In this document: positions 14,983 to 48,358 of the stretch, one piece after another
Position numbering within the stretch: the first letter of the stretch is position 1
Layout: every line of letters starts with the position of its first letter
DNA from: a virus
Virus record (IMG/VR): IMGVR_UViG_3300042731_011014
Span: 96,001-160,000 of that record
DNA length: 64,000 bases
Strand: one strand, 5' to 3'
The notes under the pieces: generated by a model
The model's input: the letters and a program-made list of their open reading frames with translations, nothing else
The model's database searches: none
Told to the model about the DNA's origin: nothing
Translations under genes and position numbers: made by a program

Positions 14983-17751
14983 CTATGCAGTTAGTTCTAC
15001 TATTTGCTTAATCTCAGTATTTACACCCTTTGTAATAATCTGATTGTCTTCTATTTCAAGATCTCCATCGCTATTAGCTGATGGCGGCGTATCTGTTACT
15101 GTCGTATCGACAAACCGTGTACCGGTAATCTTAACATTAATATATTCATATTTAGTTGCACCGGCCTGCGTCACAACATTAGCCTTAATTGCCTGATTAA
15201 ATTCGTCTAGACGTAGCTTTTGCCCAAACTCCCTGTTCTTAAAAACAATATCAACCTGCTCACTTACCTCTGTTAAAATATCCGCCGGAGCGAAAAGCTC
15301 CTTCACTTTAACCTTTACCTCAATATCAACCCCAATAAGAAACCTTGCTCCATCTATAGTTGATACTGTTACGGATGCAAGTTTTTTCCCATCAATATTA
15401 TCTTTTAATGAACTTAATAATCCATTTGATGGCGCAGTATAAAAACCATCAGCGTCAACAGTAAGTACCTGTACTTGAATAATATTTGCCTTACATTCTC
15501 CACTGATTACCGTATCGAGATAATCTTCAAGATCTTGCACTGCCGTTGTTACATTTGCCGGAATCAACGCAGTATATCCTATGTATGTATCGCTAATAAC
15601 ACTGTCAGCATTAATCGTATCTGCTAGCGTGTCAATATCATCCATGTCCGTTGAAATAACAGCAGTGTCAGTATCGATTGAATCAACATCGGTCTCAGCC
15701 TGTGTAATATCAGAATTAGCTTCTGTTAAATCAGATTTAGCATTATCTATCGCAGTCGTCGCAGACTCAAGTTCATACTGAAAATTAACATAGATATTCT
15801 TACCGAATTCACCGCTAATACCTTCAGGTGCAATAACAAAATTAACTGTTAATGCTCCTGATGCATAATTAATAGTACTTCCAGTATCTATTCCAGGTCC
15901 CGAAATCGCCCCGGCCCCATCATCAAATCCATAAACAGAGTCACCATACTTTTCCACAATAAGATTGGTGCCAAACATTCGATTACCAGAATATCTAACT
16001 TTTTTATCATTCACAAACTCAAGGATTTGCCTTTTAAGCCCACCAATCCTAATTAGCTTACCAACATCACCTGATAAGAAAAACGCGGCTGTAGCCACCT
16101 CAACGAACCCAGGGGATGTTTCACAATCGCCTGTAACATCCGAGGCAGCAACAACAGGCTCAACTACAATTGAAAGAGATCTGGGTACAATATTTTGAAA
16201 AGTCAGCAATTTATAAAATGATTTTGTCGCCCCATCGCCTTGGGCCATAATCTCCTGAAAGGGAACCGAGCTAGCCGCGTCAATAGCAATATCAAGATCA
16301 CTATTTGCATCGGCAATATGGGACGTTGCATTTGCTGTATCGGTTTTAATTGTCGCTTGCTTAGTTCCAATTGAAGCCAGTATAGACTTAGCACTGGCCG
16401 TCTCAATTTTTACAGTATTAGAACTAGTTCTAATTGCGGTATTTTTTGTTGTTACTGTACTCAAAAAAACAGACAAATTAGCCGTTTGAGTATTTATATT
16501 ATTGAGTCCTCCTTGAATACCAACCTCATTCTCGACACCAAGAAGTCTAATAGCGTTAGCTCTAGCAACCGATCCATAGGTCCCACTGCTGAATTTCTCA
16601 GAAAGAATTCGAAAATCACTTAATGAAACAGCTCTATCAACAGTAGCATACCATTTTGGGGCACTTGCCTGAATCGATGATATAGACTCCTCAGGAGCGG
16701 ACCCGGACGACGCTGAAGAATTATTGCAACTTATATTGATTACAGTAAAGTTAATAGTCAAGGAATCCCTAAATGTTGTAAGGGTCCCCGCCGCAGCAAC
16801 TCCAGCAGTTCCGCTACCAGCAACATACAACACACTGATTTCCGCCCCGGTCTCTGGAATATTTCCAATTGCCCCATTTCCAAACCGAATTGTAGGAGGA
16901 GCAGCCGCATAATCAATCATGAATTGGTTTGATTGTTCGAAATTCAAAAAATCATTTTCCGCCCAACTATCACCATCTACCTTAAGAATAACAGAGTCTT
17001 TAGCAATTGTTTTATCTGAAGGAACTGAAGTTAGCTTAAAAATCTGATTCGCAGTGCCATCGGAAATAAATGATTCATTAATCGTTTCACCCTCATAAGC
17101 AGATATGTTTTGACCAGGAAGATATTGAGTTTTTGTATATGGGTAAACAGCAGAACTTTGTTCGGCAGCGGTAAAAGTAACATCCTGATTTAGTTCATAA
17201 ATTAATCCATTTGGACCATTAATTTTCGAACCCTTAGGCACTGTAATGTCAAATCCATAATTTTGATCTAAGATTAGATCAAGATCAACAGAAGCATTTA
17301 CCATCTGACTAGGCTTGTACCCAAGTAGCCTAGCAAATCTATTTACACTGCTTCTTAATCTAGCCGTTGTTAGAAAATTTTCCTCTGATTGTTTATCCAG
17401 GTACCATGACATTGTATCCAAAGCAAATGATACATATTGGACAATCATAATTGCGATCTGTGACGCATTAAAATCGTTAAAATCATCGCCAAATTGATCT
17501 TTTATAAACGCTAAAATTTCATCTTGAAATGTCCCATAGTCACGACCAGCATATTTTACCCTGGCAAGTGTCGCCCCAATCCTGACAGTATCTCTAATAG
17601 CAGCCCCATACTCAACCACCTCAAAGTCAGTAGTAACCGATGGATCTGTTCCTGTTTTTATGTAAATAGCATCATCAGTGGTATTATAATAAGGATACCA
17701 TTGGCTTTTACCAATCGGATGCGATCCTAACTCATCAAGCGCAAGAATCAT
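14983..17751 (-). CDS. gp6: Baseplate wedge protein (T4 gp6 / baseplate J-like) with large coiled-coil insertion
   Basis: GRDYGTFQDEILAFIK...ENFLTTARLRSSVNRFARLLGYKP and DRAVSLSDF are gp6/gpJ motifs. Confidence 0.85.
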   Translation of the reverse strand: MILALDELGSHPIGKSQWYPYYNTTDDAIYIKTGTDPSVTTDFEVVEYGAAIRDTVRIGATLARVKYAGRDYGTFQDEILAFIKDQFGDDFNDFNASQIAIMIVQYVSFALDTMSWYLDKQSEENFLTTARLRSSVNRFARLLGYKPSQMVNASVDLDLILDQNYGFDITVPKGSKINGPNGLIYELNQDVTFTAAEQSSAVYPYTKTQYLPGQNISAYEGETINESFISDGTANQIFKLTSVPSDKTIAKDSVILKVDGDSWAENDFLNFEQSNQFMIDYAAAPPTIRFGNGAIGNIPETGAEISVLYVAGSGTAGVAAAGTLTTFRDSLTINFTVINISCNNSSASSGSAPEESISSIQASAPKWYATVDRAVSLSDFRILSEKFSSGTYGSVARANAIRLLGVENEVGIQGGLNNINTQTANLSVFLSTVTTKNTAIRTSSNTVKIETASAKSILASIGTKQATIKTDTANATSHIADANSDLDIAIDAASSVPFQEIMAQGDGATKSFYKLLTFQNIVPRSLSIVVEPVVAASDVTGDCETSPGFVEVATAAFFLSGDVGKLIRIGGLKRQILEFVNDKKVRYSGNRMFGTNLIVEKYGDSVYGFDDGAGAISGPGIDTGSTINYASGALTVNFVIAPEGISGEFGKNIYVNFQYELESATTAIDNAKSDLTEANSDITQAETDVDSIDTDTAVISTDMDDIDTLADTINADSVISDTYIGYTALIPANVTTAVQDLEDYLDTVISGECKANIIQVQVLTVDADGFYTAPSNGLLSSLKDNIDGKKLASVTVSTIDGARFLIGVDIEVKVKVKELFAPADILTEVSEQVDIVFKNREFGQKLRLDEFNQAIKANVVTQAGATKYEYINVKITGTRFVDTTVTDTPPSANSDGDLEIEDNQIITKGVNTEIKQIVELTA

Positions 17752-17761
17752 ACTCTATCTC

Positions 17762-18130
17762 CTAGGATACTTCCCTGCTAAAATCAACTTGAACATCATT
17801 TGCCTCAGCTAAAAATTCATAAAAAATATCTATTGTTACAATATTCTCATCGACCTCTATATTTACAGAAAGAATATCAATTCTAGGCTCCCATGTTCTT
17901 AAAGATCGATAAACCTCTCTGCGAGCCTTGGCATCAAGTAATTCGTCATTATGCTCAAAAACAAGTTCATAAATTTCACTACCAAAGCCAGGGAGCATCA
18001 CTCTCTCGCCTTTTCTCGTGCTAAGTATCTGCCTAATTGAGCTTTTTATAACCTCTCTATCCTCCTCAGTAGCAGGAATTCCACTTTTTCCTTTTCTAAA
18101 TGGATAAGATATTCCCTTAATCACAGCCAT
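17762..18130 (-). CDS. gp25: Baseplate protein, GPW/gp25 family
   Basis: IKSSIRQILSTRKGERVMLPGFGSEIYELVFE...WEPRI. Confidence 0.92.
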   Translation of the reverse strand: MAVIKGISYPFRKGKSGIPATEEDREVIKSSIRQILSTRKGERVMLPGFGSEIYELVFEHNDELLDAKARREVYRSLRTWEPRIDILSVNIEVDENIVTIDIFYEFLAEANDVQVDFSREVS

Positions 18131-18138
18131 AAATCACC

Positions 18139-18645
18139 TCATATCAATGGCATTGGAGGCGGTGGGGGTGGAATAGGAGGTGGTACAATAAATGTAACTA
18201 GCGCTGTCTTTGTTGCCGCATCAATAATCGTAGCCATTTGATTTGCAATACTATCATAAGTGTTTTTTAGGTTAGCCAACGCCCCAGCTATTCCCGGTCC
18301 TATCATTGCCGCACCAGGCATCACAAGGCACATCCCAGGGTGTGGAGCTGGTGCAAACATCACCGGAGGGGCTGTCCAGTAAGCCATAACAGCATTTTGG
18401 ATCGCCATCGCAAACGTCATAGCTTGGCCCTGTGGACTTAATGCACCCATGAGCGTAGTCATCATTAGTGCTTTCTCTGCACCGGTAAAAATCGGAGTAG
18501 ACGGGCCAGCCATAGCCGCACTTGCATAATTTGCATAGGCATCAGCAAAGGCCTTCGCCGCATCAAGATGTTGTTTATTATTCTCAGCCACATCCTTAAG
18601 AAAGGATTTGATCGGGTTAACTAACTTTATCGGAATCAATGGCAT
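18139..18645 (-). CDS. Ala/Pro/Met-rich hypothetical baseplate-region protein
   Basis: 168-aa ORF between the spike/HNH genes and gp25; poly-Pro C-terminus. Confidence 0.6.
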   Translation of the reverse strand: MPLIPIKLVNPIKSFLKDVAENNKQHLDAAKAFADAYANYASAAMAGPSTPIFTGAEKALMMTTLMGALSPQGQAMTFAMAIQNAVMAYWTAPPVMFAPAPHPGMCLVMPGAAMIGPGIAGALANLKNTYDSIANQMATIIDAATKTALVTFIVPPPIPPPPPPMPLI

Positions 18646-18648
18646 AAA

Positions 18649-19326
18649 TCACCTTACTTCTATTATATCACTTTTTAATTCATCAATCTCAGTAAACTCG
18701 TTAAAATATTTGGAATGGAGCCTGCTATGACACTCCGCACAACACCAAACAACATCAAGAGGCTTGCTGTAATCTTTATGGTGAGCTTCTATATTCTTAT
18801 TAGATCCACAAATACCGCACAGCCCCCTTATTAATTTTCCACTCCTAACTGCTGCGCTAACAGCACCTCTGGCCTTTAGTTTTTCTTTATTTTTTAAATC
18901 TAATCTAATTTTTCCGCTCTTAAGTATTAGTTTTTCTTTAATTTCTGGTCTTTGCCTATATTTTTTATACATTTCTTTAATTTCTGGTCTTTGCCTATAT
19001 CTTCTACCGTATTCTCTATTCTTTTTTTTATTTTCCGGCTTCTGCTTAATTATAGCTCGCCTTCCACTAATCTTATACTTCTCTCTATATTCCATCTCTT
19101 TTTGCTTAACATCAAACCTTTGTCGATATTCCTTACGTCTTTCTTTAAACTCTGGAATCTGTTCACGCTCTCTTCTTTTTTGTTTTGTTTCTGGTCTTTG
19201 GCTATATTTTTTTTGGCAATCCCTACAATGGCTTCGCCTTCCATCTTTTGAAGAACTTTTTCTATTAAAACAGTTTAGTGATTTTATTTCTCCACACCTA
19301 CTGCATTTCTTCTTGCCTAAGTTCAT
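18649..19326 (-). CDS. Free-standing HNH endonuclease with N-terminal Cys4 zinc finger
   Basis: CSRC...CRDC at the N-terminus; CGICGSNKNIEAHHKDYSKPLDVVWCCAECHSRLH at the C-terminus. Confidence 0.85.
   Translation of the reverse strand: MNLGKKKCSRCGEIKSLNCFNRKSSSKDGRRSHCRDCQKKYSQRPETKQKRREREQIPEFKERRKEYRQRFDVKQKEMEYREKYKISGRRAIIKQKPENKKKNREYGRRYRQRPEIKEMYKKYRQRPEIKEKLILKSGKIRLDLKNKEKLKARGAVSAAVRSGKLIRGLCGICGSNKNIEAHHKDYSKPLDVVWCCAECHSRLHSKYFNEFTEIDELKSDIIEVR
18933..19000. repeat. 29-bp identical direct repeat, 39-bp period, inside the HNH gene
   Basis: tttctttaatttctggtctttgcctatat at 18933 and 18972 (YRQRPEIKE twice). Confidence 0.9.
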
Positions 19327-20318
19327 TATTTTTTTCCAAACACTCTTGAACTATATGTTGCTGGAGTAGGTGGCTGTGCTGGAACTGTTGGAGGAGATGT
19401 AGGGCCGACTCCAGATCCGTGAAAATGAGTATTGAATGTTGTATTAATATGATTATCAACCCACGTTTTAAATTGGTTACCTAAAACCATCTTTTCTGAT
19501 GCACCCCCGCCAAGCATAATTTTATCGGCAGTTACTTCAACTTCCTTTGTTTTCACATCAACCTTATCGTCTGATTCAACAAATATTTCACCACCTTTTA
19601 GTGTAATTTTACTACCCCCAGCATGCAAAATTTCTATTTGCTCGCCTTTCATAGTGATTATATTCTCATTGTCAGCCTTATTCGTAATTACAATTTCTTT
19701 GTTTTCAGCATCAAGATAAACTGTATTTTCATTCTTATCTTTAGTGGTGATAGATCCTTTTTCATCCATTAAAAATTCTGATAGCTCAGGATGAATAATC
19801 TTAAACTGATCTTTTTCTGGCTCGCGACTAAAAAGCATTAAAAATGACTTTGCCGCATCGCTAGCAAGCATCTTAATACCGCGAACATATGGCGCTTTTT
19901 TATCAGACTCCTTACCATCCCAATCCTTACCGGGCTGACCCTCTGTTTTAAATTCATCCGGAAGCTCTGACTTGCCCTGGTCCTCCCCTTTATCATCATC
20001 GCTAGCCCACCATTGACCTATATACCATGGATAACGAATATCACCATTTTCAAACCAAACTAAAACAGCTTCATCTTTCTCAGGTGGGAAGAATATTCCA
20101 TGATCTCTACCAGCATACGGCGAACTTGGCCACGCCGGCTCACCAAGCACATCATCGCCAGATACAACAGGCACTTTAACCAGAATCCTACCTTGTCCAC
20201 CTGGATCTGCATTCGCAAAAACAGTTCCATGATAAATTCCATAGAATCTACCATAATATTCTAAACCATGAGTTACTAAGTTTCTAATAAAATTCTTAAT
20301 AAAATCAGCGGCGTTCAT
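19326..20318 (-). CDS. Central spike (gpV/gp5/VgrG-like OB fold) with HxH apex
   Basis: YHGTVFANADPGGQGRILVKVP...GIFFPPEKDEAVLVWFENGDIRYPWYIG; C-terminal FNTHFHGSGVGPTSPP. Confidence 0.88.
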   Translation of the reverse strand: MNAADFIKNFIRNLVTHGLEYYGRFYGIYHGTVFANADPGGQGRILVKVPVVSGDDVLGEPAWPSSPYAGRDHGIFFPPEKDEAVLVWFENGDIRYPWYIGQWWASDDDKGEDQGKSELPDEFKTEGQPGKDWDGKESDKKAPYVRGIKMLASDAAKSFLMLFSREPEKDQFKIIHPELSEFLMDEKGSITTKDKNENTVYLDAENKEIVITNKADNENIITMKGEQIEILHAGGSKITLKGGEIFVESDDKVDVKTKEVEVTADKIMLGGGASEKMVLGNQFKTWVDNHINTTFNTHFHGSGVGPTSPPTVPAQPPTPATYSSRVFGKK

Positions 20319-21712
20319 ATTGCTACCTTAGCATTCCCGCCACCACCACCTTCAGGTTTCTTTTGACTACCTCCAGCCGCGTTTTTTTCACCCTTTGCCT
20401 TTTTTGATACAAGATCTTTATTAACCCCTAAACTAATACCTTTAATACTCATATTGTACCCACCAGACCCAACATCATGGCTAACATTTATGACTCTATA
20501 ATTACCAGATAGCCAAGAAGATCCGAACTCAAACGCAACAATAGATCCAGGATCAGCTACATTTGGAACCCCAATAGTATCAAACTCTAGCGTAACACCA
20601 GCAACACCAAACATGCCATTGATATACAATGAATCAGCTATATCCTTACTATCCCTCTCCTCTCTTGGAGGTCTCGGAAACATCTTACCAGCGTCTCTTT
20701 TATCTTCCTTTATCTTACCTACAAAAATTCCATCTTCATCTTTTATCGTCGATCCAACATCTGAGTTAGATAACTCACCGCCATCGTTAATTGTTTTTAC
20801 CTTTGTTGTTTTTGCTCCAGCCTCAACTTTAACTGATTTTTTCTTATTTAGAGATAAATGCTGGACAACCGCATCCCCCTTTTTTGCGGCAAATAGAGAA
20901 TTAAGAGGTAGATTTACAGATCCAGTAATTGGAAACACATTATCTTTTCCAAATTCCCCAGAATGATAGACAAACTTAATCTTGGGCTCTATCTCCGCCA
21001 TTTTTAGCCAAGAATAAATAACCAAAGTATTTCCTCGCAACTCAGGTGTAGCAAGATTATAAGCGCAAAGCCACTCAATATAATCCCACCCGCTAAGACC
21101 AGATATAATATAACTATTTTTCTTTTCAGTAAACCTCTTCATTTCGCCTGGAGGGGATGATTCTGCACCGGGCATATATATGGGGCCATGCCATCCATTT
21201 CTTTTAACAAGTACCTTGATAATATCTTCAGCAGAATGTTGCTTAGGTAATCCAGTCTCAGATCCACCAAATACCTTAGCAGCCGTAGCAGACTGAGCAA
21301 ACTTATTAAGCCCCTTAGCATTTAATGTTATATCAATCATTTGACCAAGAGTTATACTAGGTGGATCCATTGACACATTAAGCCAATCTGTTTGATGTAA
21401 TGCGTCTGAAGCATACCCCCATCTAACTGATAATCTATTGTGCAATTTAACAAACTCATTTAATCCACTATACCCTCCCACACTAGGATCACCTAATAAT
21501 GCTAAACCCATATCTCGGTTCATCGGCTTCAATGAAACAGAAACCATTGAACTAGATGGTGTCAGCTTAACTGAAAGGGATTCAGCTATCGGAACATGGT
21601 AAAAATCCAATCCTGGATTTTCTCTACTGCCAGGGGTTAAAATAAGCTTTTTCTTATCGGGCGTTACAATCATCGCCTCAAAAAAAGGACTGAAAAAATC
21701 ATACGCTGCCAT
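20315..21712 (-). CDS. Baseplate hub (gp27 / late control D-like)
   Basis: Position between the LysM-like gene and the spike; C-terminal GVPNVADPGSIVAFEFGSSWLSGNYRVINVSHDVGSGGY. Confidence 0.75.
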   Translation of the reverse strand: MAAYDFFSPFFEAMIVTPDKKKLILTPGSRENPGLDFYHVPIAESLSVKLTPSSSMVSVSLKPMNRDMGLALLGDPSVGGYSGLNEFVKLHNRLSVRWGYASDALHQTDWLNVSMDPPSITLGQMIDITLNAKGLNKFAQSATAAKVFGGSETGLPKQHSAEDIIKVLVKRNGWHGPIYMPGAESSPPGEMKRFTEKKNSYIISGLSGWDYIEWLCAYNLATPELRGNTLVIYSWLKMAEIEPKIKFVYHSGEFGKDNVFPITGSVNLPLNSLFAAKKGDAVVQHLSLNKKKSVKVEAGAKTTKVKTINDGGELSNSDVGSTIKDEDGIFVGKIKEDKRDAGKMFPRPPREERDSKDIADSLYINGMFGVAGVTLEFDTIGVPNVADPGSIVAFEFGSSWLSGNYRVINVSHDVGSGGYNMSIKGISLGVNKDLVSKKAKGEKNAAGGSQKKPEGGGGGNAKVAI

Positions 21713-21713
21713 A

Positions 21714-22025
21714 CTATTCCTTTGATCTTAGGACAGCCCCGATAACTCTATTTCTATTCGGTATCCTAATTTTTTTACCCTTAAAAATCCCAAAAGGAGC
21801 AATCATAAGCTCATTTGCCTGCATTATTACCCAATATAATGAAGGATCTCCATAATATTTATAAGCAAGAAGATCCATCCTAGTATTCTCCTCAACAGTT
21901 ATGAAAATATCATCATCTTGCTCTGGGAAATCTTGGACAATTGGTGCCTCAAAAAACTCAACACCATCCTCAAGCCTTAACTCTGTTAAATTTAATCGAC
22001 TATTTACACTAACTGTTACAGCCAT
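21714..22025 (-). CDS. LysM-like baseplate protein (tail X / gp53-like)
   Basis: RMDLLAYKYYGDPSLYWVIMQAN...GKKIRIP. Confidence 0.85.
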   Translation of the reverse strand: MAVTVSVNSRLNLTELRLEDGVEFFEAPIVQDFPEQDDDIFITVEENTRMDLLAYKYYGDPSLYWVIMQANELMIAPFGIFKGKKIRIPNRNRVIGAVLRSKE

Positions 22026-22304
22026 AGATAATTCTCACTTACAGTGACATAAGGTGGAATAAAATATTCATTTTTGACAAAAACCCATATTTTATAAGTA
22101 TTATCATGCTTTTTCTACACTTACATTATCAAACCATCTAAACCGTCCTAAGTCACATTTTAACCTTTTAGCCTCCTTGATGGCTTCATTTTTTGTCATT
22201 AAAACAATCTCCTTTTTCTAACTACTACCTCACCAATCCAAAAAAAGTAAATAGATTAAAAAACACCACAATTACAACAACTACAACCTTGATAATCTCA
22301 ATTA

Positions 22305-27301: not shown

Positions 27302-28069
27302 CTAATTTGCCACAGTTAATCTTCTCTCTAGCTTTTCAGCAAAATCCATTCTATCTTTAATAAAATCCTTAAATGCTAATATAAACAAGTCTTTATCTGC
27401 TAACGTATAAATATCAGTATCATAACCATGTTTCTTTTTATATAATTTTTTCAAGATTTTACTGAAAATATTACTATATTTCTTTATCTCACTATCAAGT
27501 AAACCGTTATCCTTAAGAAAAGAATCGACGCTAATCACCAATCTATCATCCCAGACTAAACCTTTTTCATCGCTATTCTCATACGTTCCAATACTTGCAC
27601 TAGTTAATGCAGATAGCTCATGCTCGGCTACACGCCTAATATTGTCAGGTAAATTTCTTTTTGATAAAACATTCATATATTTAATTACAAGATTATGCCT
27701 CTTAATATCTTCAATATTGTTTGTTTCAAAGAAAAGTTTCCTAAGAACTTTAGATGCCTCTTTCTGATAGGCCTCAAGTTTTAATCTGACATGACTTGCT
27801 ACCTTATTAGCGTTAATTGTTGCTAGCCACATGGGAAGGGAATCTAGGTCAATCATAAAAATTCCTTGTTTTCGACCACTTGCATCGTGTGAGGTAATGA
27901 TAACTACACATGCCCATTCCTTTTCTTGCAACTTTTTCATCTGAGATTTTGAATCAATCCCCAATGCTTCACACACCCTACGGACACTAATCCAAAGGGT
28001 TTCATTGTCTTTAATCACTTCCAAATTATCGCCCTGGAAGTTAAACTTCGTTAATTCTTTACCTGTCAT
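27302..28069 (-). CDS. ant: Phage antirepressor (P22 Ant N-terminal-like domain)
   Basis: FNFQGDNLEVI...ISVRRVCEALGID...IDLDSLPMWLATINANKV...LKLEAYQKEASKVL. Confidence 0.8.
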   Translation of the reverse strand: MTGKELTKFNFQGDNLEVIKDNETLWISVRRVCEALGIDSKSQMKKLQEKEWACVVIITSHDASGRKQGIFMIDLDSLPMWLATINANKVASHVRLKLEAYQKEASKVLRKLFFETNNIEDIKRHNLVIKYMNVLSKRNLPDNIRRVAEHELSALTSASIGTYENSDEKGLVWDDRLVISVDSFLKDNGLLDSEIKKYSNIFSKILKKLYKKKHGYDTDIYTLADKDLFILAFKDFIKDRMDFAEKLERRLTVAN

Positions 28070-33033: not shown

Positions 33034-35553
33034 TTAGCCAGCAGAAGCAGTTTTTTGCTGAAATCTAATCCTAACAAACTCGCTTGGTTTCTCAGGTGCG
33101 ATGTAAACATCAATAACTATGAATCCAGCATCAATACTGCCTTGTGGATTATTGCTTGTGTCAACAATTACTGCAAACGCTTCCTCTGGTGAATTTCCGG
33201 CAAAATAACCATCGTTGTAAAGATTGTTTAGAAAACCAACAATCTGTGTTTTTATCCTTGCCCAGAGACCAGGACCATTATTTTCAAATACAATCCAATG
33301 GGTTGCATTGAATACAGATTTTTTGACAAAGATAAAAAGCCTTCTGGCCTGGATATATCTCCATTCACTGTCAAGTGACAATGTTCGAACACCCCAAACT
33401 GCCCGTCCGGTAAAACTTGAGTCCATAAACGGATTAATCCTGGTACTATAAAGAACGTCTCTTTCTCCTTTAGATAGAAGTCGTTCAATACCAATGCAAT
33501 AATTTAGCTTACCATCCTCAATACCACCTGGGGCCTTTCCTACGTTCCGATTTGAATCAGTTCGGGCATAAACACCAGCAACATGCCCAACAGGAGGCAA
33601 TAGCATTGGGCGACCCTCATTTAAGGGATCGGCGATCTGAAGATGCGGATAATACAGCGCACAGTAACTTGTGTTTTTATTTAGCGTTTGACGATTCCAT
33701 TTTGCTGCATCAGTTGGAGTATAGTTCATTGGAACCGCAGCAAGAACAAAACAATCATCCCTGTTCTCTGCGTAACCAATTTGATCATCTAGTGATGTTG
33801 GATCGCTACAAAAATCAGGAATAGAAATCTGCATAGGTTCCTCAATCTTATCAAAGGCATATATACCTTCAAGATCAGCTGCCAATGCAGGGGCAGTTAC
33901 ATCATTTCGAGTAATCGCCGCAGATCCATCAGCTCCACCGGAAAGTTCACAATAAGCTGTTCCAGTGGGTTCCAGAATATAAGTAACCTGAATATTGGTG
34001 TCTGCCGATGGCTCACTACCACCGTTAAAAATAACCGTACAGGCACCGGTCGTATAATTAACCACTGAGCCACTAGCTAGATTGGTACCAGAAATTACTC
34101 CGGTTCCATCACCCTGATCAGCGTCACCGCCCTCAGAAGCCCCGCCGTCAACATGAACAGTACAAGATCCGGGAAGAATTGACCATCCTGTTGGGACAAC
34201 AAGATCTGCCGTAAAAGTGTCAGCCGATCCGGTTCCGTAACCAATCGAATACAGTGACTTGCTAACTGGTTTCAAGGAAGGTGGTACGTCAGGGCCATCA
34301 GCGCCAACAGTTAGATCGACACGTGTCGAAAGAGCATTGATAACGTTTGGTGCGTACCTTGCGCTATCTACATCACTAAAACTTAGTTCGAGATATTGTT
34401 CCTCAATCTGATACACATCATCATCATCTTTTTCATACACATAATAATCGAATTTTGTATAGGCGCCGGTTACAGCACTTTTATAATCCTCATTGAGTCT
34501 AATTTCGCCTTTAACCCCATTTCCCCATGCACCTTTGGATATTGCATCAACATCCCAATATGCACCGGCTGCGACACCATTATAAGTGTGTGGGTAGCTT
34601 CCTTCGGCAAGACCTAGTAGTAAATTGGAGCAATCATTTTCACTTGGCGCACTAAACTCAACTTCTGATAATACTCCAGTTGTTGGGGACGTAAAAACCA
34701 GTCGGTTATCATCATCTTTTGCGACAATATCTTGCGTGTTTGAAGTATAAGTATGAGGATATGCACCTTCATCAAGACCAAGTAAAAGATTGGTGCAATC
34801 ATTTGCTGATGGTGCGGCAAACTCAATCTCTGTACCGGCCTTAAATAGTAACTTGGTGCCTTGAACAAAACACACCGTTGAACCAACGGCCGTGTTAATA
34901 TTGGCAGCAATTACAGTTAACGCATAAGATCCACCTACACCACTATCACCGGTAACATCAATATCCGCAGCTCCACCGTCATCAATATCTAAATTGATAT
35001 TAAAGTGTGTACCATCTAATGTGAGAATAGGATCAGTAATCGCTGCACCAAGAAATCGTGCTTTTTGCCAATCGTTATTAATATTGGTCACAATTGCAGA
35101 TAATGCATAAGATCCACCAACACCTTCGTCATTAGTAACATCAATCTCTTTTGCTTCGCCACCATCAATTGCAACATTGATATTATAATGTGTACCATCT
35201 AACGCCGTCGCTGGATCAGGTAAAACTCTCCCGGTTGACTCAGCCGCTGATGCAGACGAATTATGAGCACATGCAGCCGCGGCCGCATCACTCGGAGTTA
35301 CCCTAACCATATAAAGACGCTGGCCTCCATTTGCAAAAAAAGCTGTTACAGCAAAAGAAATATATGATTTTTTCCAATGTTCTCCAAAAGTTCGGAAATA
35401 CTGTTCCAAACTTGTTATTAATGTAGCTTCATGCTCGGGACCGCGAGGCGTAAACCCCATGGTCGCCATTGTTGAAGTCGAAACAGCAGCAATGGCCCCA
35501 GCACCGGCTTTCCTCTCTTCGATATAAATTCCGGGACTTAGATAACTGGGCAT
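33034..35553 (-). CDS. gp18: Contractile tail sheath protein
   Basis: Start reassigned to MPSYLSPGIYIEE (GGAGG SD); LYYPHL, PPVGHVAGVYARTD, AVWGVRTL, WRYIQARRLF, APEKPSEF. Confidence 0.95.
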   Translation of the reverse strand: MPSYLSPGIYIEERKAGAGAIAAVSTSTMATMGFTPRGPEHEATLITSLEQYFRTFGEHWKKSYISFAVTAFFANGGQRLYMVRVTPSDAAAAACAHNSSASAAESTGRVLPDPATALDGTHYNINVAIDGGEAKEIDVTNDEGVGGSYALSAIVTNINNDWQKARFLGAAITDPILTLDGTHFNINLDIDDGGAADIDVTGDSGVGGSYALTVIAANINTAVGSTVCFVQGTKLLFKAGTEIEFAAPSANDCTNLLLGLDEGAYPHTYTSNTQDIVAKDDDNRLVFTSPTTGVLSEVEFSAPSENDCSNLLLGLAEGSYPHTYNGVAAGAYWDVDAISKGAWGNGVKGEIRLNEDYKSAVTGAYTKFDYYVYEKDDDDVYQIEEQYLELSFSDVDSARYAPNVINALSTRVDLTVGADGPDVPPSLKPVSKSLYSIGYGTGSADTFTADLVVPTGWSILPGSCTVHVDGGASEGGDADQGDGTGVISGTNLASGSVVNYTTGACTVIFNGGSEPSADTNIQVTYILEPTGTAYCELSGGADGSAAITRNDVTAPALAADLEGIYAFDKIEEPMQISIPDFCSDPTSLDDQIGYAENRDDCFVLAAVPMNYTPTDAAKWNRQTLNKNTSYCALYYPHLQIADPLNEGRPMLLPPVGHVAGVYARTDSNRNVGKAPGGIEDGKLNYCIGIERLLSKGERDVLYSTRINPFMDSSFTGRAVWGVRTLSLDSEWRYIQARRLFIFVKKSVFNATHWIVFENNGPGLWARIKTQIVGFLNNLYNDGYFAGNSPEEAFAVIVDTSNNPQGSIDAGFIVIDVYIAPEKPSEFVRIRFQQKTASAG

Positions 35554-35611
35554 TTTAACCTCCAAAAAAAACCTTACGGTATTTGTTCATTTTTAATGCT
35601 TATTAAGCTTT

Positions 35612-36142: not shown

Positions 36143-36220
36143 AAAAAAACCCCTTTACTTTGTCCACGCGGCGGAAACCCCTGATTTCAATCAGGAGAGG
36201 AGCCACCTAACGATTGAACA

Positions 36221-36591: not shown

Positions 36592-36593
36592 AT

Positions 36594-37331: not shown

Positions 37332-37341
37332 AATTCACCTG

Positions 37342-39454: not shown

Positions 39455-39590
39455 TCCTATAGATCCTTTTTTCTCATTATAAACATGAGTTTTTTGTTAT
39501 CCCTGATAAGATTGTAGATACCAGCCGCATAATCTCATATTATCTGTTCGTCAATAGATATCATCTCATTTGCTTCAGATATTTTCATGA

Positions 39591-40004
39591 TTATTTTCCT
39601 ATTATTACAGGATTTTTAACCGTATCTATACGATCACTTTGACCATTGACAGTTTTTTTACTGGCCTCGTTAATTTTAAGTCTTTTGACAAGATCTAAAT
39701 GCTTTTCGCAAACCCCAATTACCTTACTAGAAATAGAGCTTTCACTTATAACACCTCTAAGCGCATAGTTAGATTGTTCGCCGCATACGTAACAAAGGTT
39801 TTTAAAGTTAAGTATAGGGCCATCGTAATCGTTAAACGCACCGCCCGATGATGGACTACCGCAACCATTCTGGGATGTACATCTGACTGTATTATCCCAT
39901 CTCTTTAACCCTTTTTCTTTTCCCTCCCAATATTTTTTACACATTGCGCAAACAAATATCAGACCAGTTTTCATCTCGCCAAGTACTTGTTCCTTCGTAA
40001 ACAT
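39591..40004 (-). CDS. Cys-rich (zinc-binding) hypothetical protein
   Basis: CAMC, C..C, CYVC and CEKH; start moved to MFTKEQ (GGAGA SD). Confidence 0.6.
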   Translation of the reverse strand: MFTKEQVLGEMKTGLIFVCAMCKKYWEGKEKGLKRWDNTVRCTSQNGCGSPSSGGAFNDYDGPILNFKNLCYVCGEQSNYALRGVISESSISSKVIGVCEKHLDLVKRLKINEASKKTVNGQSDRIDTVKNPVIIGK

Positions 40005-40017
40005 TATTTCTCCAATA

Positions 40018-40974: not shown

Positions 40975-41014
40975 TATATTTCCTTATTTTTAAGTCTAAT
41001 CCATATCATTTTCT

Positions 41015-42184
41015 CTAATGCTTTTGCATTACTTTTCTTATTTCTCCATCGCTTGTTTTATCTATCATATCTGCCAATCTTCTCATGTCAGTTAGTGTTT
41101 TTATGGCTTTTTTGGTTGGTTTTTTTGTTTTTGATGCTTTTATAATCTGCTTGGGGACCTCTAGAATAAGATCCTCAAGGTTAGCATATGAGTATTTCCC
41201 TTTGCTTACAAACCGTGTACGAAATAATTCATCAAAGGGGAATTTCAAAATTCTATATGCCCTATTGTTATGCCAATCCGGATAATTTCCTTTTTTGTAA
41301 TCATTTATAAAATCAGTAATGCCTTTTCTTATCTCGTCATTATCATAACTATCGTCATCTTTTCTTATGTCCAAAAGAACGTCCCCAAGTTTTTTCATAA
41401 AATTAAGAATTTTATTAAAATCAGATTTCCATTCGCTTTTGTCGCCAAGGCCAATGTCAGCTTCTTTTTCGCCGAACTTACTGGCAATTTTGTTAAATAT
41501 AATCATTTGTTTTGGTGACAGTGTCTTGCCGCGCTTAATCTGAGATCTAAACGAATCAATCATATCGTGATCACTATGAGGATCGCCTTTATAGTCGTCA
41601 TCCGGGACATTCCCAAAAATTACATCCTCAATTTTATCGCGGATTTCATTGACCTTTTTGAGCATTTTTTCGTCAACTTTTACATTAAAAAAATCAACAA
41701 CTATCTCAGGCAAAATATTTGGATCTCTTTTAAACTTTTGTTCAACCTTGGAAAAGTTCATTTTAAAGTCACCACCTTCACTTTTTGGATGATCAACTTT
41801 CACTTTTCCATGGTAAACAACACCGCCACTATCAAGGATAGTCATGAATGCATGGTATCTTATCTTCGATTTGGTTTTTCTTCCAAATTCTTTAAGTTGA
41901 ATTTTTTCGGCCACAACAATTGAATTTTTCCCATGATCATGACCCATTTTCTTAGCAATATCAGAAGCTTTTTTAAAATCAGTAGATCTAAAGCTATGAC
42001 GTGAGATATTTTTGCCCGCATTCAATAAAAACTTACCCTGCCTGTCAGATTTCCATTCGCCCTTGTTATTTTTAATGAGGGTATTAACCGATTTATAGAA
42101 ATCAACTATAGCCTCGTCTAATTGCTCAAAAATAAGCGAAGCTTCCCTAATTAGGCTTAATCCATGTTCTAATATTTTACTCAT
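41015..42184 (-). CDS. Leader-bearing putative internal head protein
   Basis: N-terminus MSKILEHGLSLIREASLIFEQLDE. Confidence 0.6.
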   Translation of the reverse strand: MSKILEHGLSLIREASLIFEQLDEAIVDFYKSVNTLIKNNKGEWKSDRQGKFLLNAGKNISRHSFRSTDFKKASDIAKKMGHDHGKNSIVVAEKIQLKEFGRKTKSKIRYHAFMTILDSGGVVYHGKVKVDHPKSEGGDFKMNFSKVEQKFKRDPNILPEIVVDFFNVKVDEKMLKKVNEIRDKIEDVIFGNVPDDDYKGDPHSDHDMIDSFRSQIKRGKTLSPKQMIIFNKIASKFGEKEADIGLGDKSEWKSDFNKILNFMKKLGDVLLDIRKDDDSYDNDEIRKGITDFINDYKKGNYPDWHNNRAYRILKFPFDELFRTRFVSKGKYSYANLEDLILEVPKQIIKASKTKKPTKKAIKTLTDMRRLADMIDKTSDGEIRKVMQKH

Positions 42185-42187
42185 ACC

Positions 42188-42652
42188 TTACTCCATTTCG
42201 GATATGATAGCGGATAAATCGCCTATTATACTCTCTTCTTTTTCCTGCTTCTGATACAATGAACTTAGCCCGTCAGTATTTATTTCGCCTTCGACCTTTG
42301 CGCATGACTTAGGCGAACTGAAGTGCTTACAATTTCCGCACCGCTTATTAGGGTCCTCTGATGTTTCAACATAACTGGCAGTCTCCTTGGACACCTTTCC
42401 TTTCTTACTATCGCTTTTCTTTCTTATACTCACATCAGATTTTTTGTTACTAATATTGGTGTTTCCTTTTTCCTTGTTATCCTCTTTACTTTTTTTAAGT
42501 GTCGGAGGTGGATCAGCCCTGTTGCCATCATCACCAATATTAGCGTCAGCGTCGTTATCCTGATCACTATCTTTGTCTTCTTTTTCGAGAATATATTTCA
42601 CTGTATCCTCAAGAAATTGAAGACCTTCTTTTAATATACTATTGTGTTTCAT
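42188..42652 (-). CDS. Leader-bearing protein with HiPIP-like Cys motif
   Basis: MKHNSILKEGLQFLEDTVKYILE; YVETSEDPNKRCGNCKHFSSPKSCAKVEGEINTDGLSSLY. Confidence 0.6.
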   Translation of the reverse strand: MKHNSILKEGLQFLEDTVKYILEKEDKDSDQDNDADANIGDDGNRADPPPTLKKSKEDNKEKGNTNISNKKSDVSIRKKSDSKKGKVSKETASYVETSEDPNKRCGNCKHFSSPKSCAKVEGEINTDGLSSLYQKQEKEESIIGDLSAIISEME

Positions 42653-42906
42653 AATTTTATTCCTTTTTCTTTTGCTAACGCTCTCAGATCGTCAATACTC
42701 ATATTGTCAAGAATATACGTCTCGTATCCTTTTGATGCATCCATTACCTTATACCTACCACTTATTTTTTTGGCATCGCCGGATCTTTTAAATGCTTTAA
42801 AAATCGCCCTTATAATTTTCATTTTAATATCAGCTTCAACAATCACTGAATGTTTTCTGATAAACTCTAAACCATTTTGAAGAATCTTACCGTATTTCAT
42901 AATCAC
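42649..42906 (-). CDS. Leader-bearing small putative internal head protein
   Basis: MIMKYGKILQNGLEFIRKHSVIVE. Confidence 0.6.
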   Translation of the reverse strand: MIMKYGKILQNGLEFIRKHSVIVEADIKMKIIRAIFKAFKRSGDAKKISGRYKVMDASKGYETYILDNMSIDDLRALAKEKGIKL

Positions 42907-42907
42907 C

Positions 42908-43456
42908 TCACGTATTCATCTTTCTTTCAGGAGTGAATTTAGAATGACGAATTAGCTCAAGGTTGAAACAATCATAAGTTGTACCGGTATCTTTGTCTCG
43001 ATCTATGCTGGTTATATCGAATTTAATACCATTCATTTCAACAATATCGCCTATTTTTGGGACAATTGTTTTGTCAGTAACTTCAGATGTTGCGTTAAGA
43101 GCAGTCTCCCAGTCCCCAAAAAGGATTTTTATTCGGGTATCAAAGGTTTTATACTTACCTTTTTCATCACCTGTTGTAGTGGTTCCAACAAACGCATAGA
43201 AGAAATCAAGCTCAAAACCAAAATCAACCTCTTTGATGTACTCGTTATTGATTGGTTCGTCATATAGTGGATCCCTGACAGTAGTGGCAAGATTTAGAAC
43301 TATGTATCGACCGGTAGTCTTTCCGGCCATGTCGCTTAGATCTATGTATTTATCATTAAGGCCAAAGCTTTTCTTAGTATCCTCAATCTCAGATATTATG
43401 TTTGTAAAAAACGCGGCTTCACGTTCCTGACATTTTGGCTTTGAGTCACAGCTCAT
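42908..43456 (-). CDS. Putative head closure (gp14-like) protein
   Basis: DPLYDEP and PKIGDIVEMNGIKFDITSI; position downstream of the gp13-like gene. Confidence 0.45.
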   Translation of the reverse strand: MSCDSKPKCQEREAAFFTNIISEIEDTKKSFGLNDKYIDLSDMAGKTTGRYIVLNLATTVRDPLYDEPINNEYIKEVDFGFELDFFYAFVGTTTTGDEKGKYKTFDTRIKILFGDWETALNATSEVTDKTIVPKIGDIVEMNGIKFDITSIDRDKDTGTTYDCFNLELIRHSKFTPERKMNT

Positions 43457-43457
43457 A

Positions 43458-43871
43458 CTATCCCCATCTTATTCGGCCACCAAAGCACTTGACAAGGTGT
43501 TCAAGGTGTTGCCTGGCCTCTTGTAATGGTGACATTTTTGGTTTTCTAACAGGTTCAAAATCATCTTCCTCGATACTGTAGTTGATCAAACTTTCGTCAT
43601 CATCAACGCCAGGTACACTGCAAAACATATCTATTTCACTATCAATCTCAGGACCACCTAACCCAAGCATCATATTACTAGTTCCACCACCTCCTTTAAG
43701 TATAAGATCCTCAAGCGGTGTACCCTGCATCTTAGGAGGAACAAATTGCTCAACCATTTTTTGCTTTTTCGACCTAGCAGGTTTACGTGCCTGTGGCGAT
43801 TGTCGTCTTGGTTGTTTTTTATTTGGAACCTTACATATACTAATGATTTCATCCATAAAGTTACTCATCAT
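43458..43871 (-). CDS. Hypothetical protein
   Basis: 137-aa ORF coupled to its neighbours. Confidence 0.55.
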   Translation of the reverse strand: MMSNFMDEIISICKVPNKKQPRRQSPQARKPARSKKQKMVEQFVPPKMQGTPLEDLILKGGGGTSNMMLGLGGPEIDSEIDMFCSVPGVDDDESLINYSIEEDDFEPVRKPKMSPLQEARQHLEHLVKCFGGRIRWG

Positions 43872-44446
43872 CTGCCCCTTTTTAGATCTCTTTCTATTCT
43901 TCTCTGCGTGCTTCGTCTTAGTGGTGACTTCTCTTTTTTGGGGACTTTCTTGCTCTTCTCTTTTTCCTTGCCTTTCTCCGCTTTGGCTTTTCTCGCTTCT
44001 TTACCTTGCTTTGTTCCGGTAGCCCCTCCAGATTTTTTATCATCATCTTTTTTACCCCTATTTAGACGTTTCAAGTATCTATTATACTCACGCTCAAACC
44101 TAAGTGTCATAAAATTGTAATGCGAAGTTTTTCTAGCGCCGCCACGCTCAAACGCATGCTTAAAATCACGTCTTACACCGCGCTGTGTTCGCTTCATATC
44201 CGAGACTTTCCCTTTATGGGACCCTCGTTTATAGAACGCTGATAAGCCATCCTTATGATGGTGCCAGGGTTTTGTCATAACATGTCTGCACATATTCATC
44301 GCAGCAAAAGCCCTGGTACCTTTTTTAGGTTTGAACTTTCTGTTTTTATAAACAGCCAAGGTGCAGTGTTTAATGAGCGTAGGTGCCTGTTTTAAATCCG
44401 ATTCACCAGCTTCAGCTAAAAGATGTTTTATACTAATAAGTTTCAT
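43868..44446 (-). CDS. Highly basic protein, possible DNA-binding core protein
   Basis: Lys/Arg-rich throughout; N-terminal HLLAE/A. Confidence 0.55.
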   Translation of the reverse strand: MKLISIKHLLAEAGESDLKQAPTLIKHCTLAVYKNRKFKPKKGTRAFAAMNMCRHVMTKPWHHHKDGLSAFYKRGSHKGKVSDMKRTQRGVRRDFKHAFERGGARKTSHYNFMTLRFEREYNRYLKRLNRGKKDDDKKSGGATGTKQGKEARKAKAEKGKEKEKSKKVPKKEKSPLRRSTQRRIERDLKRGR

Positions 44447-45332
44447 TTATTACTTTAGCCTTTTCAAATTTATACCTTCCAAAACAATCAAAACCTTGAG
44501 TATTAAAAATCTTTTTAATCTCCGGTCTTACATTTTCAGATCTATCAACTATCCAAATACACTCTGTACGTTCTTTATCAATGCTAACTTCTTTTATTTT
44601 AGAAGCGAATATTTTAACTTCAAACCTGATAGTAAACCATTCATCTGGAACATAGTTGTTATCATATCCTGATAAAACGAATGAGCCCTCTGCATTATTA
44701 AGAGCAAGGATAAGGTTTTTATAATAGCTATCGTCAATTTTAAATTCATAGTTCTGATCAGTGCCAATATATGGCGGGTCACAATAAAATAAAGTTTGCG
44801 GACTGTCCCATTTTTTAATTATATTAATAGCATCATCACATTCAATATAAACACTCTGCAATCTATCAAGTGGACTTTTTAATCTGTTATTCCCATTAGA
44901 CCAAGTAACACAATGATTTTGAGTAAATAAACCAAAACCCCATCCGCCATTTTCTATTTTTGCAAATGATTGATTTATATTAACATAATACGCCCATGCT
45001 TTTTCCAGATCGCTAGCGCCATTAGGATTTTTACATATTTCTACAGCCTTTTTATGTTCAGCCTTAGAGTATGGAGTAAGTTTTAAATGCCTTATTAATT
45101 CTTCACCATCATCACTACGTAGCACCCTAAAAAAATTAACTAAAAGCTCATTTTTATCGTTAAGAACTTCACGATAGTGAGTACTGTTAGTTATCATAGG
45201 TAGTGGTTTTGTAAAAAATACTGCTGCACCACCACAGAAAGGCTCTACATAAACAGTGTGATTGGGGAAATACTTCACAATTTTCGAAGCTATACGCTGC
45301 TTGCCACCATAATACGAAATAGGAGTTTTCAT
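44433..45332 (-). CDS. dam: DNA adenine methyltransferase (D12/Dam class)
   Basis: ISYYGGKQRIA, YVEPFCGGAAVFF, LNDKN, FYCDPPY. Confidence 0.92.
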   Translation of the reverse strand: MKTPISYYGGKQRIASKIVKYFPNHTVYVEPFCGGAAVFFTKPLPMITNSTHYREVLNDKNELLVNFFRVLRSDDGEELIRHLKLTPYSKAEHKKAVEICKNPNGASDLEKAWAYYVNINQSFAKIENGGWGFGLFTQNHCVTWSNGNNRLKSPLDRLQSVYIECDDAINIIKKWDSPQTLFYCDPPYIGTDQNYEFKIDDSYYKNLILALNNAEGSFVLSGYDNNYVPDEWFTIRFEVKIFASKIKEVSIDKERTECIWIVDRSENVRPEIKKIFNTQGFDCFGRYKFEKAKVINETY

Positions 45333-45511
45333 TTACCACCAACAAGTTTCATTGCTTTTTCTCGACCCTCATTAGGCTGACCAGTTTTCGGATCAACATT
45401 AAATAAACCAGGAGGAAGTCTCATATACTTACCAGCAAAAGTAGCTGCACTTTTACACGCCTTCTCATAATTCAAATTAAGTTCTTTCATATTCCTCATG
45501 AATTTCGCCAT
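45329..45511 (-). CDS. Small hypothetical protein, possibly the C-terminal part of a frameshifted gene
   Basis: 60 aa; overlaps a 29-aa ORF in another frame. Confidence 0.45.
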   Translation of the reverse strand: MAKFMRNMKELNLNYEKACKSAATFAGKYMRLPPGLFNVDPKTGQPNEGREKAMKLVGGK

Positions 45512-45566
45512 AATTAGTACCTGGAGCTATTCCAGAAAGCATTCTTAATTCTTCTACAAGTTTCAT
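45477..45566 (-). CDS. 29-aa ORF with an EELRxLSG leader
   Basis: Hand translation MKLVEELRMLSGIAPGTNYGEIHEEYERT*, starting 3 nt after the neck gene stop. Confidence 0.5.
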   Translation of the reverse strand: MKLVEELRMLSGIAPGTNYGEIHEEYERT

Positions 45567-45569
45567 TAG

Positions 45570-46313
45570 TCACTCCGTAAAAAAGCTTAATGGGTAAAAA
45601 TTTCTTGCTTCCTCTTTTAAGATCTCAAGCTCCTTGTCTGACTCATCAAGTAACTGGGCACCATCAAGTACCACTGCACCACCGGGTACAGGAATATTAT
45701 CGAACTTGGATCGGATCCTACCAAGCGTTTGCTTTGCGTGTGCTATGCAGCATTTTCTCAGAAAATCCTCCTCACGCGGTCGAAGCCGATCTCCGTCAAC
45801 AATACTTCTTTTATATTCAAAAATAGCTGTCCCACTTTGAGTACGCTCCGGCATTATAAGAAGAATGCCAGTATCAAAATCAAACTCAAAAGCAGTGTCA
45901 CCACTAAGAACCCGTTTTATTTGCTCTTGATGCTGAATCGATTGAACGATCCCGCTATACGTCAATTCAGACGAAATATGAGCGCTTTCATAGGGCACAC
46001 CAGACAGTCCAAGGAAATCATAATTGAGCATAAAACTAACGTCTACAGGGCCAGCAGGGAGCCATAACTTAGTCACAGAAACAAGTTCGTCAAACTCGTC
46101 AGCAGACAGAATCGTGCTAAGATCGTATTCCATAACCCCAGCTGTAATTTGGAATGATGCCTTTTTCTTTTTTCCAAGACGAGCAGAATACCACCTCAAA
46201 CCGTCGTCAATAGCATCATCAAGATCATTACTGCTAAGTTCAACACACATCTGTTCGCCGCCAAGCTTACGAACAATATAATCCTTCAGTTTAGTTCTCT
46301 TAATAACTCCCAT
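45570..46313 (-). CDS. gp13: Neck / head-tail adaptor (T4 gp13-like)
   Basis: KLKDYIVRKLGGEQMCVELSSNDLDDAIDDGL; AKQTLGRIRSKF...PGGAVVLDG. Confidence 0.88.
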   Translation of the reverse strand: MGVIKRTKLKDYIVRKLGGEQMCVELSSNDLDDAIDDGLRWYSARLGKKKKASFQITAGVMEYDLSTILSADEFDELVSVTKLWLPAGPVDVSFMLNYDFLGLSGVPYESAHISSELTYSGIVQSIQHQEQIKRVLSGDTAFEFDFDTGILLIMPERTQSGTAIFEYKRSIVDGDRLRPREEDFLRKCCIAHAKQTLGRIRSKFDNIPVPGGAVVLDGAQLLDESDKELEILKEEARNFYPLSFFTE

Positions 46314-46329
46314 CTAAACATCCTTAGTC

Positions 46330-46797
46330 TTACTCTCCTGTTAATTTTTTCTTGGCTGACTCAACAAGGGACTCAGTAAATTCGGTTGTTCTATTTATTT
46401 TCATAGCCAAGTTAACAGGGTGAACGTTTGCTATTTTCTCGAAACTGCCAAAGCCGGCCTTGATAAGTTTTTTAGCTGTCTGTATTCCAATACCATCCAG
46501 TTGGGTAAGATCATCCTCCTTCTCTGGCTCAATACTAAAATCCAGACCATCACTTAGTAATGGATCAATGTCTGAATCAATAAACTCATCAATAGGATCG
46601 ATTACATCTTTAACTTCCTCTTTTGGCGGTTCCTGTTTTACTTCAACATACTCTACCAAGATAGGTGGCTTTTTTTTAAAAGTTGGCTTCAAATACTTTA
46701 CCCATTCTTTCCCCGCCAAAATTGTAGACCTGTCAATGTCCTGACCGTTAATACATACACTATCCGCTGGCCAGGCGGGATTTAATTTATACTTCAT
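46330..46797 (-). CDS. Protein with C-terminal helix-hairpin-helix domain
   Basis: DDLTQLDGIGIQTAKKLIKAGFGSFEKIA; start moved to MKYKLN (AAGGAG SD). Confidence 0.75.
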   Translation of the reverse strand: MKYKLNPAWPADSVCINGQDIDRSTILAGKEWVKYLKPTFKKKPPILVEYVEVKQEPPKEEVKDVIDPIDEFIDSDIDPLLSDGLDFSIEPEKEDDLTQLDGIGIQTAKKLIKAGFGSFEKIANVHPVNLAMKINRTTEFTESLVESAKKKLTGE

Positions 46798-46815
46798 TGT
46801 GCACTCCTTGCGAAG

Positions 46816-46856
46816 CAAAAAGAAAGGAATAAGGAGGGAGACGAATGCCTCCCTCC
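46816..46856 (-). terminator. Rho-independent terminator after the major capsid gene
   Basis: GGAGGGAGG-CATTCG-TCTCCCTCC followed by a T-rich tract. Confidence 0.75.
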
Positions 46857-46876
46857 CTCAAAGGCTAAATTAAGAA

Positions 46877-48358
46877 CTATGGCAGGTTAGAACAAGTGAT
46901 TAAACCATAGTACTTATTGTTAACTAATTTTTTCGCGTAGCGTGTCCGCATCCCCTTCCTGAAGTTTTGGTCATCAGGGTCGAGGAATGTTGGAGTAACC
47001 TGTAAGGGCACATAAGGCGCATACACCATTCCTGAATCCAAGAATGTTGGTCCCTTTAGGCCTATCATGATTTGATCATCTGGGAATAGTGGATCAACAT
47101 AAACAGTCCATCGGTTTTGTAACACGCCTAGGCCATATACACCGAATCCTGACGGCGACGTTGGAGGTTGAGGTGCGGGTTGACCAAGGGTCCCTTGACC
47201 AGCCGGCATACTTCCACCATCAAAAACTGATTTAAAGCTACCATGAGTCTCCATGGCGCTAAACAAGGATGCAGCCCGAGTGCTTGTAACAATCCAATTA
47301 CCCGGACCACGCAAGGTTTGCTTACCGACTTCCTGGGAAACCTTGGCAATCTTGGTTAAAAGAGTCATGTAATGCTCTACTGGGCTATAGCTTAAACCAG
47401 ACACATCCGCATCAAACGATTCCTTGTTTGTACCAGCGGCAGCACCTAAATACATGTCCATAATTAGCTCACGGTCGATTTCCAGAGCCAGTTCTGATGC
47501 TACACCACCAACTAACTCCCCTTCAGCGTCCATACCGTGTATGGCTTTTAAATCATCGGCAGCTTCAGCGCTCCACAAGAATTTCAGCTTCCGGCTACTT
47601 ACCTTGATTGGGTCAAGGCCGATATCCAAATAGACTTGAGGCACGGTAACATTTGCCCCTTCCATATCGAAAAAGTAGTTAGCGTAGATAGGAGCTTTGT
47701 CATCTACATTACCATCCCAGGTAATATCATAGGCACCATCCGAGTAAGTAATCGTTGATGCTGCACCAGTATCACCAGCTAAATCCCCACTTCCGTCGGG
47801 ATCATAGATTCTTTTGGCTGCGGTTCCAACCAGGGTTGTAAACTCAAGACCAACTTGGGCTTGCGGACATGAAATAAAAGGTTTTACAGGTGTCCATGAA
47901 AGGTTACCAGTGTAATTCGCTGTCGCACCATTACCGGTCGCGATAACTTCGTGATAGATATACTCTGAAGAATAATACCTGTCGAAGTTCTCGATCATAT
48001 TGTCGCCAGCTGTAATTGTTCCCTTGGAGGTACCGTATTTGTACTCCCAAGTGAAAATGCCTCCTATAGGGCCAGTCATTGGTTGTATAGAAACGAGATT
48101 GTTAGCAATTAAGTTCGGCCATACCCTACGAATCATAGGGAAGACGAACTTCACGAAATCAGCGAAGTTACCTGTGGTTGTATTTTCACTGAGGTTTCGG
48201 ACATGCTGCATTTGATTTTCGAATAAAATAGCCGTGGCTGCCCTACGATAGGGTTCATGGATACCTTCTAAAAGGGGTGCCCATTTTTTAGTTACAGCTG
48301 CGACAAAACTCTTATTTTGAATTGAACGGGTTTCGTTCATTATTTCTCTGGCTTCCAT
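46877..48358 (-). CDS. gp23: Major capsid protein (T4 gp23-like)
   Basis: FPMIRRVWPNLIANNLVSIQPMTGPIGGIF; SRKLKFLWSAEAADDLKAIHGMDAEGEL; YAPYVPL; TRYA. Confidence 0.97.
   Translation of the reverse strand: MEAREIMNETRSIQNKSFVAAVTKKWAPLLEGIHEPYRRAATAILFENQMQHVRNLSENTTTGNFADFVKFVFPMIRRVWPNLIANNLVSIQPMTGPIGGIFTWEYKYGTSKGTITAGDNMIENFDRYYSSEYIYHEVIATGNGATANYTGNLSWTPVKPFISCPQAQVGLEFTTLVGTAAKRIYDPDGSGDLAGDTGAASTITYSDGAYDITWDGNVDDKAPIYANYFFDMEGANVTVPQVYLDIGLDPIKVSSRKLKFLWSAEAADDLKAIHGMDAEGELVGGVASELALEIDRELIMDMYLGAAAGTNKESFDADVSGLSYSPVEHYMTLLTKIAKVSQEVGKQTLRGPGNWIVTSTRAASLFSAMETHGSFKSVFDGGSMPAGQGTLGQPAPQPPTSPSGFGVYGLGVLQNRWTVYVDPLFPDDQIMIGLKGPTFLDSGMVYAPYVPLQVTPTFLDPDDQNFRKGMRTRYAKKLVNNKYYGLITCSNLP

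Follow-up and report, generated by a model that had tools for sequence, protein, structure and literature searches.

That phage virions carry promiscuous accessory domains with a beta-sandwich fold is already known. Fraser et al., writing in J Mol Biol in 2006 (cited in PMC9230969), reportedly found immunoglobulin-like (Ig-like) domains of the I-set, FN3 and Big_2 types added promiscuously to virion proteins. Such domains, together with T4 Hoc, are small beta-sandwich modules, often arranged in tandem and with a presumed accessory role, that many unrelated phages add to proteins of the capsid, tail, sheath, baseplate and fibres. Here we describe a module that shares these features and recurs in the major capsid protein (MCP), the tail sheath protein and a gp6-like baseplate wedge protein encoded in a 64,000-nucleotide stretch of viral DNA (IMG/VR record IMGVR_UViG_3300042731_011014, positions 96,001 to 160,000), hereafter the window.

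Several solved or surveyed structures provide the closest points of comparison. In the head of phage P1, the beta-rich insertion domain (I-domain) of the MCP gp23 protrudes from the surface and, with the N-terminus of a neighbour, makes contact with the P-domain of the next capsomer, cement proteins being absent from this capsid; the I-domains of P1 and T4 have been called structurally similar (PMC12810830). In multi-domain tail sheath proteins, a variable number of extra beta-sandwiches lies between the N-terminal and the C-terminal portion of the sheath core, on the outer face and away from the tube, and stabilisation or adhesion has been proposed as their role (PMC9230969). The same survey classes these outer domains generally as Ig-like, and neither defines the present family nor links it to capsid I-domains. 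The RcGTA distal tail protein (Dit) Rcc01695 combines a tube-like core with an additional flexible insertion domain, for which sugar binding has been proposed without a test (PMC7296036). Proteins of this type make up DUF2460/TIGR02217, also an already known family, of which our literature searches found passing mentions only.

The window is a section of one 177,890-bp phage contig on which the late structural genes, and every feature located below, lie on the minus strand; translating the three segments' coordinates on the plus strand yields nothing but stops. A sequence-only reading of the window had proposed that one beta-rich domain is inserted into its capsid, sheath and baseplate proteins. 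Independent profiles bear this out and extend it to six copies in five virion proteins. The segments originally singled out correspond to residues 137-228 of the MCP, 439-529 of the sheath protein and 500-657 of the gp6-like protein. A hidden Markov model (HMM) built from these three recovered three more that the genome carries a short way upstream of the window (genome 90295-92336), in proteins of 438 and 235 amino acids, and a profile search of the genome found no copy beyond the six at E<=1.

BLASTP links the sheath and gp6 segments (E=1e-6) and gives no significant match between the MCP segment and either of them, so that profiles were needed. In leave-one-out searches, each with a profile of the other five copies, the MCP, sheath and gp6 copies were recovered with E-values of 2e-12, 5e-8 and 1e-11, respectively. 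An external profile, made from 264 instances in 136 unrelated proteins of other genomes with no capsid proteins among them, recovered the same copies with E-values of 3.5e-19, 1.8e-13 and 5.3e-14. The matches cover nearly the whole domain, and the framework motifs are GxGDG..F, PxS, DDGxGxLxG, Y.TG, F and Y. The three segments therefore represent a single ancient accessory domain, some 85-95 residues long.

The MCP gene (46877-48358) encodes 493 amino acids of the Gp23 family (Pfam PF07068, E=1e-67 over residues 67-485; phrog_138), with an HK97-type core that matches the Gp23 profile. Its module copy (residues 134-232; 47663-47959) lies between the block of the N-arm and E-loop and that of the P-domain. 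In an alignment with T4 gp23 (phmmer, E~1e-31), MCP residues 52-118 pair with 75-139 and residues 249-475 with 257-478; these two blocks flank a gap, and the module thus fills the site of the T4 I-domain. With the I-domain of T4 gp23 and gp24 the module shares this insertion site in the Gp23 fold, but no sequence similarity: the T4 virion proteins tested reached at most 2.6 bits against the module profile, and the whole T4 genome gave no match. T4 gp23 and gp24 are also absent among the structural matches listed, although a shared fold is possible all the same. P1 gp23 does match the module (E=4.7e-4 against the PDB; 29-31 bits over HMM positions 8-86 with the external profile), and it was the sole match in a search of the P1 genome (E=3.3e-4). 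The P1 I-domain (PDB 9ukm/9vl4) belongs to the same family and fold, yet is only 14-21% identical, and P1 has a detectable module in its capsid protein only, whereas the present phage has five carriers. Judged by sequence, the capsid copy is an I-domain of the P1 gp23 type and not of the T4 type. The concern that the MCP segment might map onto ordinary elements of the gp23 fold was half right, in that the module occupies the ordinary I-domain slot but is no ordinary element of the HK97 fold.

Each of the 120 nearest MCP homologues has a single copy at this site. The module sequence here changes more rapidly than that of the HK97 core (median identity 32.6% versus 53.8%), and its conserved positions consist solely of a framework of Gly, Pro and aromatic residues. 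Both observations fit an exposed domain held together by a structural framework.

The tail sheath gene (33034-35565; phrog_23) encodes 843 amino acids from a TTG codon or 839 from the first ATG, with Phage_sheath_1 and Phage_sheath_1C matches at the C-terminus. Its module copy (residues 439-533; 33967-34251) sits within a long insertion that separates the conserved N-terminal from the conserved C-terminal portion of the sheath core. The same insertion holds, at residues 115-328 (34582-35223), two internal repeat pairs unrelated to the module: residues 115-163 with 176-224 (63% identity, E=4e-21) and residues 238-273 with 288-328 (61%, E=7e-18). Their order, A1-A2-B1-B2, could have arisen by duplication of a domain made of two parts, one copy perhaps lying inside the other.

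The two remaining carriers are encoded by adjacent genes in a distal baseplate/fibre gene cluster, 3.7-5.7 kb ahead of the window start. The 438-aa protein (genome 91008-92324) has two module copies and the 235-aa protein (genome 90292-90999) a single compact, uninterrupted one, besides a weak Phage_tail_fib match at its N-terminus. A structure search of the ESM Atlas gave a lead (score 0.78) from the 235-aa protein to proteins named 'baseplate wedge 3 tail fibre network'. Nearby genes encode a 342-aa Big_5 Ig-like protein, an 853-aa DUF4082 protein and a 1446-aa beta-helix spike or fibre.

The gp6-like wedge gene (14983-17751; 922 amino acids), which adjoins a gp25-like wedge gene, matches the baseplate wedge subunit family phrog_219 at residues 69-388 (E=1.6e-28). 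Here the external profile matches in two halves, residues 499-542 (16126-16257; HMM 5-55 in the profile) and 603-662 (15766-15945), separated by a nested insert of about 60 residues (543-602; 15946-16125) that forms a small beta-barrel. Two matched stretches could be read as two tandem modules, but this is rather unlikely, since hhalign favours a single one: the alignment of residues 495-665 spans one whole module, interrupted once by a gap of about 72 residues (99.4% probability, E=3.6e-21), and the inserted piece alone shows no similarity to it (0.25% probability). The gp6 copy is one module split by a nested barrel, and both the split and the barrel are conserved in orthologues. The barrel is similar to the E1 FCCH domain and to barrels of lambda gpJ and of tailspikes. 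Apparently it is a second small promiscuous phage domain, and it accompanies the module in other phages (E1_FCCH in two of 92 carriers). On either side of the module (residues ~420-498 and ~663-745; 15517-16491 overall), long repeat-like stretches rich in Thr, Ser, Asp and Ala look helical, and might form a hairpin stalk that keeps the module off the wedge.

Structural modelling predicts that the module is an eight-stranded all-beta sandwich, and the predicted structure shares the fold of the solved P1 I-domain. Foldseek against the PDB returned nothing at E<=1e-3, and VIA-align was used for structural matches instead. Among predicted viral structures, the model matches a tail sheath domain of another phage (E=3e-6, rmsd 1.5 A, 33% identity), MCPs of other phages and a baseplate wedge subunit, which runs counter to any suggestion that the copies have unrelated folds. 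The compact copy of the 235-aa protein, searched in the ESM Atlas, likewise retrieved Gp23 proteins (TM 0.87) and Baseplate_J proteins. The label Ig-like is unproven for this module. Neither the proteins nor the segments matched the Ig-type Pfam families I-set, FN3 or Big_2. A match of the six-copy profile to filamin (Ig, E-set; E=0.004) disappeared with a deeper profile and is not relied on.

Beyond this genome the family is large. An exhaustive profile search, counted as cluster representatives, yielded 2,526 members at E<=1e-3, of which 556 were at <=1e-10. Carriers span 235 to 4,188 amino acids and have up to 13 matched stretches each, in tandem. The best 150 of the 2,526 carriers include about 24 tail sheath proteins, each bearing between one and five copies, and six gp6-like wedge proteins. 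A Pfam census of 92 carriers found Phage_sheath_1 in 13, DUF2460 in 11, HDPD (the lambda gpD-type decoration domain) in two, Baseplate_J in two, E1_FCCH in two, and Tail_P2_I and a beta-helix in one each. All recognisable carriers are externally exposed virion proteins. The fusion to HDPD, seen in two other phages, would be a second route to display on the capsid.

Current domain libraries cover this family in part only. In Pfam and NCBIfam searches no model matched the copies of this phage apart from a sub-threshold CopC match, and two PHROG families of unknown function match them. In external members the module aligns to positions ~91-175 of 205 of DUF2460, and two of them (P0036 and P0022) score above the gathering threshold, whereas the copies of this phage do not reach the curated cut-off. 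The deeper family profile also marginally matches Rcc01695 (chain 6tba_6B, residues 91-207, E=0.031). DUF2460 nevertheless describes a whole protein, tube-like Dit core plus insertion domain, and the module corresponds to the insertion-domain part: the N-terminal Dit core has no match in the MCP, the sheath protein, the gp6-like wedge or the two further carriers.

We infer that the copies face outwards and serve stabilising or adhesive roles. The module is probably an ancient accessory beta-sandwich that phages append to outward-facing virion proteins, acting as a buttress in the capsid and as decoration or spacer elsewhere. By analogy with the solved P1 head, the capsid copy would project beyond the shell and brace the capsomer next to it, serving as cement that is built in. 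The copies in the sheath, wedge and fibre cluster most likely lie on the outer face, as decoration or spacers. They may also make weak contacts of low specificity with neighbouring subunits or surface polymers.

It is possible, if unlikely, that the module is mainly a carbohydrate-binding adhesin, whose hundreds of copies on head, tail and baseplate would let the virion bind weakly and uniformly to a host capsule, mucus or particle glycan. A similar adhesion to glycans has been proposed for Hoc-type Ig-like domains. Outward-facing carriers, long tandem arrays, and fusions to gpD-type decoration proteins and beta-helix spikes would all suit such a role, as would the faster evolution of the module relative to the capsid core, and adhesion or sugar binding is among the proposals made for extra sheath domains (PMC9230969) and for the related RcGTA Dit insertion domain (PMC7296036). 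However, the copies share framework residues only, with no conserved polar or aromatic surface patch, and match no curated carbohydrate-binding family. P1, the sole solved capsid member, shows a protein-protein buttress and not a ligand site. Also doubtful is a broader proposal, that P1-type I-domains, outer sheath domains, gp6/Baseplate_J inserts, the DUF2460 Dit insertion domain and gpD-type fusions form a very large, as yet uncurated superfamily that gives head, tail and baseplate of this phage clade a common surface chemistry for binding an environmental or host polymer.

The sequence-only reading had also raised the idea of a shared docking site for a decoration protein. In this view the copies would let one decoration or accessory protein bind to all three virion parts, head, tail and baseplate. 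The same fold is indeed displayed on several virion parts, and a 162-aa open reading frame (ORF) directly follows the capsid gene, but we consider the idea very improbable because the copies have only framework residues in common. Pairwise identity among the six is 22-47%, highest between copies in the two adjacent tail genes, and the positions invariant across all of them are taken up by Pro, Gly and Tyr of the framework. The analysis turned up no candidate partner.

Another suggestion, that the module is mobile, holds over deep time but not for the recent past of this genome. Six copies in one genome, with the closest pair (47% identical) in adjacent carriers, might recall a cassette recently spread by recombination. 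Yet the capsid copy is 60-65% identical to the MCP copies of related phages and 32-34% to its own paralogues, most other copies are likewise nearer to modules of other phages than to one another, the capsid copy is universal among the 120 homologues, and orthologues retain the split gp6 copy. These identities within and between phages indicate a module that has been promiscuous over deep time, and recent spread is scarcely credible. On sequence grounds, the copies diverged long ago as paralogues, and each has become fixed in the lineage of its carrier. Least credible of all is a chance or compositional likeness among beta segments rich in Gly, Thr and Asp, which the failure of BLASTP to link the MCP segment might suggest, but which is refuted by the leave-one-out results and by independent profile E-values of 1e-13 to 1e-19 at full-length coverage. 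Two copies, each modelled on its own, also share their best structural match, which speaks against it too.

Two aspects of this family appear to be new: that one large family unites the P1 I-domain, DUF2460 and the inserts of sheath and gp6 proteins, and that a single phage bears members of it on five of its virion proteins. Our literature searches, within their limits, turned up no earlier description of either. No new principle is involved, as phages are well known to place promiscuous accessory beta-sandwiches on their virions. The family nonetheless comprises at least 2,500 clusters and links the capsid I-domain of P1 with variable outer sheath domains, gp6/Baseplate_J wedge inserts and the DUF2460 insertion domain, which are usually treated apart. 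Its curation would help to annotate better many phage structural proteins now listed as hypothetical, and it offers a defined module with which to test virion stabilisation against weak adhesion.

The phage itself is remote from cultured phages, its MCP reaching at most 33% identity to any entry in the phage collection, and falls in a large clade of uncultured phages whose contigs measure 150-290 kb. Its late genes run in the order prohead protease, MCP, adaptor, sheath, tube, baseplate hub, gp25-like wedge and gp6-like wedge. Scattered through this structural operon are non-structural genes: an endonuclease VII/HNH-like gene that lies among the baseplate genes (18649-19326), a gene for a protein with an Ant-like anti-repressor domain (27302-28069) beside a giant gene of 1660 amino acids, and a DNA methyltransferase gene near the head genes (44433-45332). 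No recognisable decoration gene was found near the capsid gene. The 162-aa ORF immediately downstream of it (46330-46818), which has no PHROG match, possibly encodes a decoration or accessory head protein.

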